A stretch of 12,229 nt of DNA from a virus. Its lineage: Duplodnaviria; Heunggongvirae; Uroviricota; Caudoviricetes. The stretch lies in IMG/VR virus record IMGVR_UViG_2609459834_000004. The stretch is one strand, 5' to 3'. Below the pieces are notes generated by a model. That model did no database searches. It was not told where the DNA came from and was given only the letters and a program-made list of their open reading frames with translations. Below are positions 3,564 through 4,933 of this stretch, one piece after another. A program made the position numbers and the translations under genes. Within the stretch, counting starts at the first letter, position 1. The number at the start of each line of letters is the position of its first letter.

Positions 3564-4782
3564 TGGTTTTTCCCTCATCATTTTTTGGGGGCTTAAAATC
3601 TCCTGCCGGGTTAGCAGCATTCACGCTTACCAGCATCTCATCCAGCCCTTCAACCGGATTCATATCCTCGAATGCGCGGGCCTCATTACGGCTCATCCAT
3701 CCATCGGTAATAGCGAAGTGATAGAATTGCGCGCGCTCCTGCGGAGTTCCGCGTAAAAGCCCCGTCAGATTGAACCTGACGTAATACCCGGCGGCTAACT
3801 CAGCGCGGGTAAACAAGCGACGGTTAAGCTCCTGCTCCCAGTTCGTCACCCACGGCATCATCGTGTAGCGGACAAACTGAATCGCCTGCGCAGAAATATT
3901 GGAGAAGGTGGCTTTTTCGAGGTCATTAATCATGTGCGCAGGAATATTGAAAATACCGGCAATCATTGAACGGTTCAGTTTCATCATGTCAATGATCTGA
4001 GCGTCAACTGGCGACACAGTCAGTGCCTTGTAATCCAGATCGGCTGGCAGCAGCATGGTTTTGTTTTCCTGGCTGCGTAACGCCTGCGATGCCTTCTGCC
4101 ACTGATCTTTAAGCCAGCCCCAACTGTCCTTATTGAGTCCGCTTTTAACGGATACTATCCCCGCCGGACGGGCATTACCGCTGAAGAAGCTTTCTGTGTA
4201 TTTCTGACCGCTCATCCCCATGCCTATTGTTTCGGCATGTTGCATAATCGGACTCAGCCCCATCTTCTGATTATTACCCAGCGCACGGATGTGGATCATA
4301 TCGTCGGGGCTGATCGCAAACGCCCCATATTCGTTGTACAAACCGTAGGTGTATCGGCCACCAGTATTCATCAGCGTCGTTTCCCACGGCATACAGCAAT
4401 CCAGGGATATGACTTCACCGCGACGATTACGTTTCACCCAGGTATACCCATTCCCCCAGCCAAGGATGTGACGTTGCTTCAGTTCGCGCCATTTGTAACT
4501 GGTTTGCCAGGTATTGGGCTCATCATGAACCAGATAAAACGCCGGATGATCGCGTGCGGGCTCAACCTTCCCATTGTGCCTGCGCATAACATGCAACGGC
4601 ATCTGGGCAAGGCTGGAAGACAGGACATAGATACAGGAATACACCGCAGCCAGTTTCATCGCAGTTTCAGGACTGACATAAACGTCTGCCCGGAACAGCC
4701 CATCAGTATCAACGGCATCCCCGGTTATCGGGGTGGAAGGATTCTCCAGTGATTTACTTCTGAACAGAGCATCAAGCAGCAC
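3556..4782 (-). CDS. Portal protein (HK97 family)
   Basis: 408-aa ORF between large terminase and prohead protease. Start is GTG at 4782, preceded by AGGGGGA; no nearby in-frame ATG. Confidence 0.88.
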   Translation of the reverse strand: MLLDALFRSKSLENPSTPITGDAVDTDGLFRADVYVSPETAMKLAAVYSCIYVLSSSLAQMPLHVMRRHNGKVEPARDHPAFYLVHDEPNTWQTSYKWRELKQRHILGWGNGYTWVKRNRRGEVISLDCCMPWETTLMNTGGRYTYGLYNEYGAFAISPDDMIHIRALGNNQKMGLSPIMQHAETIGMGMSGQKYTESFFSGNARPAGIVSVKSGLNKDSWGWLKDQWQKASQALRSQENKTMLLPADLDYKALTVSPVDAQIIDMMKLNRSMIAGIFNIPAHMINDLEKATFSNISAQAIQFVRYTMMPWVTNWEQELNRRLFTRAELAAGYYVRFNLTGLLRGTPQERAQFYHFAITDGWMSRNEARAFEDMNPVEGLDEMLVSVNAANPAGDFKPPKNDEGKTNE

Positions 4783-4933
4783 GCGTCCCCCTTCTGGCCA
4801 TAGCCAGTGCGCCCACCAGCAGTAAACCGCCGGACAGCATCAGAGCCGGAGCCATACCAAACTGCAGGTAAAACCCGCACGTAAGCAGGCCAAAACCAGC
4901 CAGCCCGATAACATCAGCAATTAGTGATTTCAT
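4772..4933 (-). CDS. Hypothetical small hydrophobic (two predicted TM segments) protein, 53 aa
   Basis: Not in the ORF track (under 60 aa). Minus-strand ATG at 4933-4931 overlaps the large-terminase TGA (ATGA). Translation: [53 protein letters not shown]. Fills the terminase-portal gap and its stop overlaps the portal GTG start. Confidence 0.35.

Follow-up and report, generated by a model that had tools for sequence, protein, structure and literature searches.

A 12,229-nucleotide stretch of viral DNA (IMG/VR record IMGVR_UViG_2609459834_000004, Caudoviricetes; referred to here as the window) carries a 53-codon open reading frame (ORF) between the genes for the large terminase (TerL) and the portal protein. 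It is read on the minus strand from position 4933 to position 4772, including its TGA stop codon. On comparative evidence, this small ORF is a genuine coding gene under purifying selection, and its product is predicted to be a two-helix membrane hairpin of a family encoded directly upstream of the portal gene in a very large and taxonomically broad set of phages. The positions of alignment junctions indicate that the gene belongs to a three-part mosaic unit together with the portal gene and the sequence encoding the C-terminal tail of TerL. For the protein itself we tentatively favor a late function linked to the portal at the inner membrane.

Evidence that the small ORF is a gene

The first-pass annotation, made from the window sequence, had reported a 53-amino acid (aa) ORF between the large terminase and portal genes, and had raised the alternative of a chance ORF in GC-rich sequence. 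The ORF is present as described, on the minus strand, which had been left unsaid, but the surroundings are not GC-rich, the window having a GC content of only 49.5% and the small ORF one of 56.2%. Its status as a gene follows from comparative evidence (conservation and substitution patterns) and not from its length: the probability of one open 52-codon frame at this composition is about 0.09-0.17 (9 to 17%), and the ORF alone, as a single sequence, is not beyond chance.

Among the IMG/VR viral contigs encoding a portal at least 90% identical to that of the window (n = 80), the frame was intact and in register in 80 of 80, represented by 32 DNA alleles and 23 protein variants. Phages of Edwardsiella, Klebsiella, E. 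coli, Salmonella and Ralstonia, at only 51-81% nucleotide identity over the ORF, all have one of 52-53 codons in that position, and the frame was kept in every divergent homologue examined, down to about 51-66% nucleotide identity over the ORF and 35-55% protein identity. The search for frame loss in relatives that the first-pass annotation had proposed thus found none, and the proposed Ka/Ks comparison points to purifying selection specific to the annotated frame. Nei-Gojobori ratios of nonsynonymous to synonymous substitution (dN/dS) were 0.09-0.50 in 21 of 21 pairwise comparisons, which covered phages of Edwardsiella, Klebsiella, Salmonella, E. coli and Ralstonia. Ratios of the corresponding proportions of differences (pN/pS) below 0.6 were obtained only in the annotated frame and in the antisense frame that shares its third codon positions, the remaining frames giving values of about 1-2 and containing stops. 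Synonymous divergence (pS) was 0.35-0.65 in the small ORF versus 0.70-0.79 in the flanking genes.

These data bear directly on the alternative that the interval holds a chance ORF, or a non-coding or RNA spacer between the terminase and portal genes. The chance probability given above and the lack of an annotation for the ORF in the reference records of phage SfV speak for this alternative, which is contradicted by the retention of the frame in close and divergent relatives, by the frame-specific selection, and by a full-length match of the protein to a PHROG profile (see below). A search of Rfam with the portal-start region returned no RNA family, and RNA folding of the same region was no better than that of shuffled sequences (z = 0.18); an RNA element or a masked portal Shine-Dalgarno sequence was ruled out on these two results. 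We consider a chance or non-coding origin extremely improbable and, on the comparative data, already refuted.

Overlaps with the terminase and portal genes

The genes on either side of the small ORF lie on the same strand. TerL (positions 4930-6663, minus strand) was identified by the Pfam TerL_ATPase and TerL_nuclease domains, and the HK97-type portal protein (positions 3556-4782, minus strand) by the Pfam family Phage_portal (PF04860, E = 3e-98). As had been noted at first pass, the start and the stop of the small ORF both overlap its neighbors: the ATG shares an ATGA sequence (positions 4930-4933) with the TGA of TerL, and the last 11 nucleotides (positions 4772-4782) overlap the beginning of the portal gene, whose GTG start at position 4782 is given both by the sequence and by the coordinates of the Prokaryotic Genome Annotation Pipeline (PGAP). 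The portal N-terminus, MLLDALFR, is conserved, and an ATG occupies the position of this GTG in Klebsiella and E. coli phages. The Shine-Dalgarno sequence of the portal gene, AGAAGGGGG, lies within the small ORF (positions 4787-4795, minus strand), and sequence inspection revealed no Shine-Dalgarno sequence upstream of the small ORF itself.

PGAP calls the same three coding sequences, with the same overlaps, in an E. coli locus that is 100% identical over the 701 nucleotides compared. In BLAST searches, E. coli CP55_Sichuan matched the DNA around the small ORF at 100% identity and phage SfV matched it at 97%. The description of the ORF as unannotated is therefore right for the SfV reference records only in part of the databases: RefSeq/PGAP genomes and several phage records list it as a 'hypothetical protein', and the SfV reference records do not list it.

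A predicted two-helix membrane hairpin

The 53-aa protein has a grand average of hydropathy of 1.13, with two hydrophobic blocks in the Kyte-Doolittle profile, and an AlphaFold2 model based on a 55-sequence alignment predicts helices at residues 2-25 and 27-51 separated by a break at G26 (mean predicted local distance difference test score, 85.6). Both results agree with the two hydrophobic segments reported at first pass, and the basic C-terminus is confirmed as well. Across 55 diverse members of the family, with 35-75% identity, the glycines G13, G20, G26 and G35 are each conserved in at least 90% and D7 in more than 70%, and A42, seven residues after G35, is invariant among 20 close members. 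In each helix the conserved small residues share one face, G13 and G20 (i, i+7) in the first and G35 and A42 in the second, and in the modeled structure they would most simply form the tight helix-helix packing interface of the hairpin.

According to the positive-inside rule, the three C-terminal arginines and K2 would place both termini (MKSLIAD at the N-terminus and RRGTRAA at the C-terminus) in the cytoplasm, with a minimal turn at G26 in the periplasm. The YLQFG-x turn would be on the periplasmic side in this topology. The portal Shine-Dalgarno sequence AGAAGGGGG reads in the small-ORF frame as the rare arginine codons AGA and AGG followed by GGG (R47, R48 and G49), so the basic RRG tail would be doubly constrained, by membrane topology and by portal translation. 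Such dual coding at positions 4787-4795 may explain the lower synonymous divergence of the small ORF.

Family and position in other phages

The protein belongs to PHROG 7105 (E = 9.2e-22, residues 1-52 aligned to profile positions 1-52 of 52), as do its Salmonella and Ralstonia homologues, and is identified in RefSeq as WP_000838374.1, a 'hypothetical protein' of the same length at the same position (PGAP). These entries cover SfV-like prophages of Escherichia and Citrobacter and phages of Edwardsiella, Klebsiella, Salmonella and Ralstonia; length, position and overlaps are alike, and no difference from the protein of the window was found. An exhaustive hidden Markov model search of 1.84 billion representative proteins produced 120 clusters (at 50% identity) with E-values of at most 1e-3, nearly all of 48-60 aa and matching end to end. 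Neither Pfam nor NCBIfam has a family for the 53-aa protein, and a sequence search of the PDB with the family profile gave no match.

Genomic contexts were read in six phage records, ten Enterobacterales genome loci and metagenomic members at 35-50% identity; a profile scan of genome contigs with the close alignment matched Enterobacterales only, and the distant contexts come from metagenomic contigs that encode members. The small ORF was directly upstream of the portal gene in every member with readable surroundings, and directly after TerL in most, the order TerL, small ORF, portal being found in all the phage records and in most distant metagenomic members. The contig of one distant member (L026) has, at positions 1-1263, a 5'-truncated gene for 420 aa directly upstream of the small ORF, with no Pfam match and no tblastn similarity to the TerL of the window, which may be a very divergent terminase or a different neighbor. 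A single chromosome of Symbiopectobacterium purcellii (NZ_CP189882.1; loci L017-L021) carries five TerL-hairpin-portal modules, which is unusually many prophage copies, and the 52-codon small ORF is intact in each of them.

Phages with a TerL like that of the window but another portal have a different small hydrophobic protein in the slot between the two genes. The occupants assigned to PHROG 502, which were either scanned or are near-identical to YmfR, are YmfR of the E. coli K-12 element e14, Sb3 of Salmonella phage ST64B, L37 of the Stx phage phiP27 and gp3 of Burkholderia phage phiE125, the last of which matches PHROG 7105 as well; in Vibrio, Yersinia and Klebsiella phages the slot is filled by unnamed ORFs for small hydrophobic proteins. 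In e14, ymfR is intact and the flanking TerL and portal genes are truncated pseudogenes. Like the small protein of the window, the YmfR type (60-61 aa) occupies this slot within a head module of the same kind (HNH, P27-type small terminase (TerS), TerL, portal, S78 protease and HK97-fold capsid) and has two hydrophobic helices with aligned glycines. The two types differ in that they share only about 25-35% identity, in that YmfR has a PP turn, a WSW motif and an acidic, glycine-containing C-tail where the small protein has YLQFG and RRG, and in that the start of YmfR is usually about 10 nucleotides past the TerL stop and has its own Shine-Dalgarno sequence (GAGG), whereas the small ORF uses ATGA. 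The YmfR type also travels with a different portal type, of 28-33% identity.

An alignment of the PHROG 7105 and YmfR family profiles with hhalign gave a probability of 93.9% (E = 1.5e-7) over 52 columns with the glycines aligned, and the small protein itself matched PHROG 502 weakly (E = 1e-4), both scores being of a kind that hydrophobic composition can inflate. YmfR and phiE125 gp3 had only weak Pfam matches, all below the cut-offs. These alignments make it probable that the SfV-type and YmfR-type small proteins are remote homologues within one superfamily, although homology between short transmembrane proteins is never fully secure. Among 5426 complete E. coli genomes, 1375 contain a related TerL 3' end, and 256 of these also have the small ORF and portal start; the YmfR-type module appears to be several-fold commoner than the SfV type in this species.

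The view that a small membrane protein would be unexpected inside a packaging operon was therefore overstated, as a very large group of phages regularly has a small gene for two transmembrane segments here. The slot is not always filled in this way. HK97 has no gene between TerL and portal and couples the two directly, with no spacer gene. In lambda, a small gene lies between terminase A and portal B (map order Nu1-A-W-B), but its product, gpW, is a soluble head-completion protein of the virion; it shares the slot with the small ORF, but is not a hydrophobic hairpin and shows no Pfam similarity. Lactococcus phage r1t, considered as a slot occupant through DUF1056, was rejected, its record having neither a small gene beside the portal nor such a TerL-portal slot, and the SPP1 genome paper describes no relevant transmembrane gene between terminase and portal.

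Translation of the small gene

The start of the small ORF overlaps the TerL stop (ATGA or GTGA) in nearly all members examined, and its end overlaps or abuts the portal start (GTG...TGA, ATGA or TAATG) or lies a few nucleotides away, with overlap in most. The last codons of the ORF in relatives contain purine-rich Shine-Dalgarno sequences (AGGGGG, GAGGGGG, AGGAGA and AAGGGGG). Because these overlaps are conserved and the small ORF has no Shine-Dalgarno sequence of its own, we infer that ribosomes reach it by terminating at the end of TerL and reinitiating, and that the ribosome-binding site of the portal gene lies within it.

An arrangement of this kind could also be a translational-coupling device, in which the passage of ribosomes through the ORF sets the TerL:portal ratio and delivers or unmasks the portal start, the peptide being a tolerated by-product in the membrane. 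The family-wide conservation of the overlaps at both ends, the embedded portal Shine-Dalgarno sequence and the lack of one for the ORF all suit such a device, and the lower synonymous divergence is consistent with an RNA or overlap constraint. Coupling alone, however, does not account for purifying selection on the amino acids, with near-invariant glycines and a conserved Asp7 among the 55 members, or for a two-helix hydrophobic character that 120 clusters and the sister family of YmfR have retained. Moreover, HK97 joins TerL to portal without any spacer, no stable RNA structure masks the portal start, and the portal has a strong Shine-Dalgarno sequence of its own. We regard a pure coupling function as quite unlikely.

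Co-segregation with the portal gene

Identity of the small protein to the window copy was compared with that of its neighbors across 26 loci, and correlated with portal identity at a Spearman coefficient of 0.92 and with TerL identity at 0.62. Klebsiella and E. coli siphophages and Symbiopectobacterium have a TerL about 38% identical and a portal about 85% identical to those of the window, and encode a small protein of the same family. In ST64B, TerL is 89% and the portal 28% identical, and the small protein is of the YmfR type.

BLAST junctions fall at window positions of about 4978-4990, that is, 16-20 codons before the TerL stop. The C-terminal tail of TerL, FLSxLDPDDxLLIL (positions 4930-4990, minus strand), travels with the small gene and the portal, and is kept with the portal type of the window even where the rest of TerL is only about 38% identical. 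In ST64B, e14 and phiP27, where TerL is otherwise 76-89% identical, the tail is replaced by one ending in ESYGIRSL. Judged by these junctions and by the distribution of the tail, the mosaic unit consists of the TerL C-tail, the hairpin and the portal. This suggests that the tail is a portal-docking segment co-adapted with the portal, for which the C-terminal portal-docking tail of lambda gpA is a parallel.

Two metagenomic contigs of one distant lineage (L023 and L024, from SRR27710286/7) contain the small ORF and the portal without TerL upstream. The small ORF is preceded there by about 185 nucleotides of non-coding DNA (in the region of positions 480-690 in L023) that end in a strong terminator-like hairpin, CCGGCGCAAAACC...GGTTTTGCGCCGG, and a T-run directly before the ATG, with no visible Shine-Dalgarno sequence. 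From this arrangement, the small ORF and the portal stay paired when TerL is elsewhere. Members of the family also accompany tail modules of either kind, contractile or siphovirus-type, and more than one kind of lysis cassette.

Comparison with moron and lysis genes

The first-pass annotation had suggested that the ORF could be a moron, such as a gene for a superinfection-exclusion or toxin-like peptide. Morons, in the sense of Juhala and Hendrix, are recognized by their own promoter and terminator, which allow expression from the repressed prophage, by a deviant GC content, and by being obvious sporadic additions (PMC3594210). Consensus scans, which are weak evidence, detected no promoter- or terminator-like sites above shuffle expectation in the flanks of the small ORF, so that a promoter and terminator of its own were not found. 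Its GC content of 56.2% does not deviate from that of TerL (54.4%) and the portal gene (51.4%). As to sporadic addition, the gene is absent from HK97, but present in 80 of 80 close relatives and at the same portal-adjacent place in distant ones, from Enterobacterales to Ralstonia phages and diverse metagenomic contigs. The mRNA of K-12 ymfR, moreover, is co-induced with the lytic genes of e14 under SOS conditions (log2 fold change, 4.5; PMC10012262) and not separately expressed. None of the three marks of a moron is thus clearly present in the small gene, and these observations go against the earlier suggestion.

The window as a whole corresponds to a lambdoid, SfV-like prophage with genes for a Q antiterminator, a porin, an S21 pinholin, a lysozyme, Rz, Bor, HNH, a P27-type TerS, TerL, the small ORF, the portal, an S78 protease and an HK97-fold capsid. 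A full-length Gram-negative porin gene (positions 10163-11320, plus strand; Porin_1, E = 6e-157) and a Bor lipoprotein gene (positions 8107-8448, plus strand) lie around the Q/lysis region on the strand opposite to the small ORF; both are typical cargo of lysogenic conversion and far stronger candidates for morons than the small ORF. The lysis cassette (positions 8480-9650, minus strand) encodes a phage-21-type holin of the pinholin family, a lysozyme with a hydrophobic, signal-arrest-release (SAR)-like N-terminus, and Rz. E. coli CP55_Sichuan has an otherwise identical head module and a different lysis cassette (two holins, GH19 and LysC), which indicates module shuffling.

A late membrane effector unrelated to assembly is the main rival to a portal-linked function. 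In this alternative, which we hold to be possible but doubtful, the hairpin would oligomerize or bind a conserved host inner-membrane protein, and it could exclude superinfecting DNA, tune the time of lysis or the membrane potential, protect against a membrane-bound defence, or be mildly toxic, the position beside the portal being a mere convenience for late expression. In size, in having both termini inside, two transmembrane helices and a basic C-tail, and in its glycine-rich helices, the protein resembles class II holins and pinholins, viroporins and small membrane modulators. It has a topology compatible with that of class II holins (two transmembrane segments, both termini inside and a charged C-terminus), although hole formation would be hypothetical. 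No holin family was found among its Pfam and PHROG matches, however, and neither it nor YmfR had a match in PADLOC at an E-value of at most 1, so that no holin or defence family is indicated. A holin role would also be unnecessary, as the window already has a complete S21, SAR-like lysozyme and Rz cassette, located 4.5 kb from the small ORF.

The sister family PHROG 502 is filed as 'moron, auxiliary metabolic gene and host takeover: membrane protein', which favors an effector, but that category follows only from the 'membrane protein' label. That HK97 does without the gene is what would be expected of an accessory function. HK97 also offers a precedent in gp15, a small inner-membrane superinfection-exclusion protein encoded by a moron within the morphogenetic operon (PMC3594210). 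The gp15 gene, however, has its own promoter and terminator, deviant GC content, patchy distribution, expression in the prophage and specificity for the incoming tail, none of which was seen for the small ORF. The lack of a promoter, terminator or GC deviation thus counts against an effector, and a gp15-like exclusion directed at tails is hard to square with a gene that keeps to the head module through changes of tail type and lysis cassette.

Possible role at the portal

The portal-tracking identity, the fixed slot and a precedent in T4 lead us to favor, tentatively and with low confidence, a late, low-abundance hairpin that works at the inner membrane alongside the portal or the packaging vertex. 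In T4, the membrane-bound initiator of the portal (gp20) needs gp40 and contacts YidC (PMC9958956). Under the proposed function, ribosomes terminating TerL at the ATGA would reinitiate on the small ORF, so that the protein would be made late and at the low levels of TerL and portal, and the 53-aa hairpin would insert into the inner membrane, its two short ends facing the cytoplasm. There it might tether the portal ring or help in its assembly, in functional analogy with the gp40/YidC portal initiator of T4, or alternatively recruit or modulate a conserved host membrane protein; the gene would not be one for lysogenic conversion or exclusion. The likeness to gp40 would be that of a phage membrane factor for a portal initiator at the inner membrane, a functional analogy put forward as a hypothesis only, with no similarity in sequence or size established. 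In T4, gene 40 is not known to lie next to gene 20.

Several points weigh against this proposal. Co-segregation with the portal may reflect tighter physical linkage through the 11-nucleotide overlap, and in the predicted topology only about seven residues at each end would be cytoplasmic, leaving little surface for portal binding. No functional study of ymfR, Sb3, any other family member, or small membrane proteins between terminase and portal was found in the open-access literature searched. It is for these three reasons that our confidence is low. In addition, it is more usual for tiny transmembrane hairpins to oligomerize or to act on other membrane proteins, no relationship in sequence to T4 gp40 is established, the PDB gave no match, and the slot is empty in HK97, the archetype of this head type, from which it follows that the small protein is not a universal requirement of HK97-type assembly. 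The wider idea of YmfR-like hairpins as inner-membrane proteins dedicated to the portal, or to the step in which the TerL C-tail docks on the portal, is more speculative, and we consider it rather unlikely.

The small gene is already known, being present in RefSeq and in the PHROGs, and its K-12 relative has the gene name ymfR. What is mildly new is that the SfV-type and YmfR-type families are probably linked, that synteny next to the portal is kept so widely and so strictly across a very large and taxonomically broad phage set, and that the mosaic module has three parts, among them the last 16-20 or so residues of TerL. If the protein is only an accessory late membrane protein, these results would amount to routine annotation. 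A conserved membrane protein in a core head-assembly module, on the other hand, has no explanation in current models of HK97-type assembly. If YmfR-like hairpins do act as partners of the portal, the cytoplasmic membrane would be the site at which a very large group of HK97-type temperate phages, and not just T4, nucleate or operate the packaging vertex, and this would provide a first function for the E. coli K-12 y-gene ymfR and a notable addition to models of HK97-type assembly.

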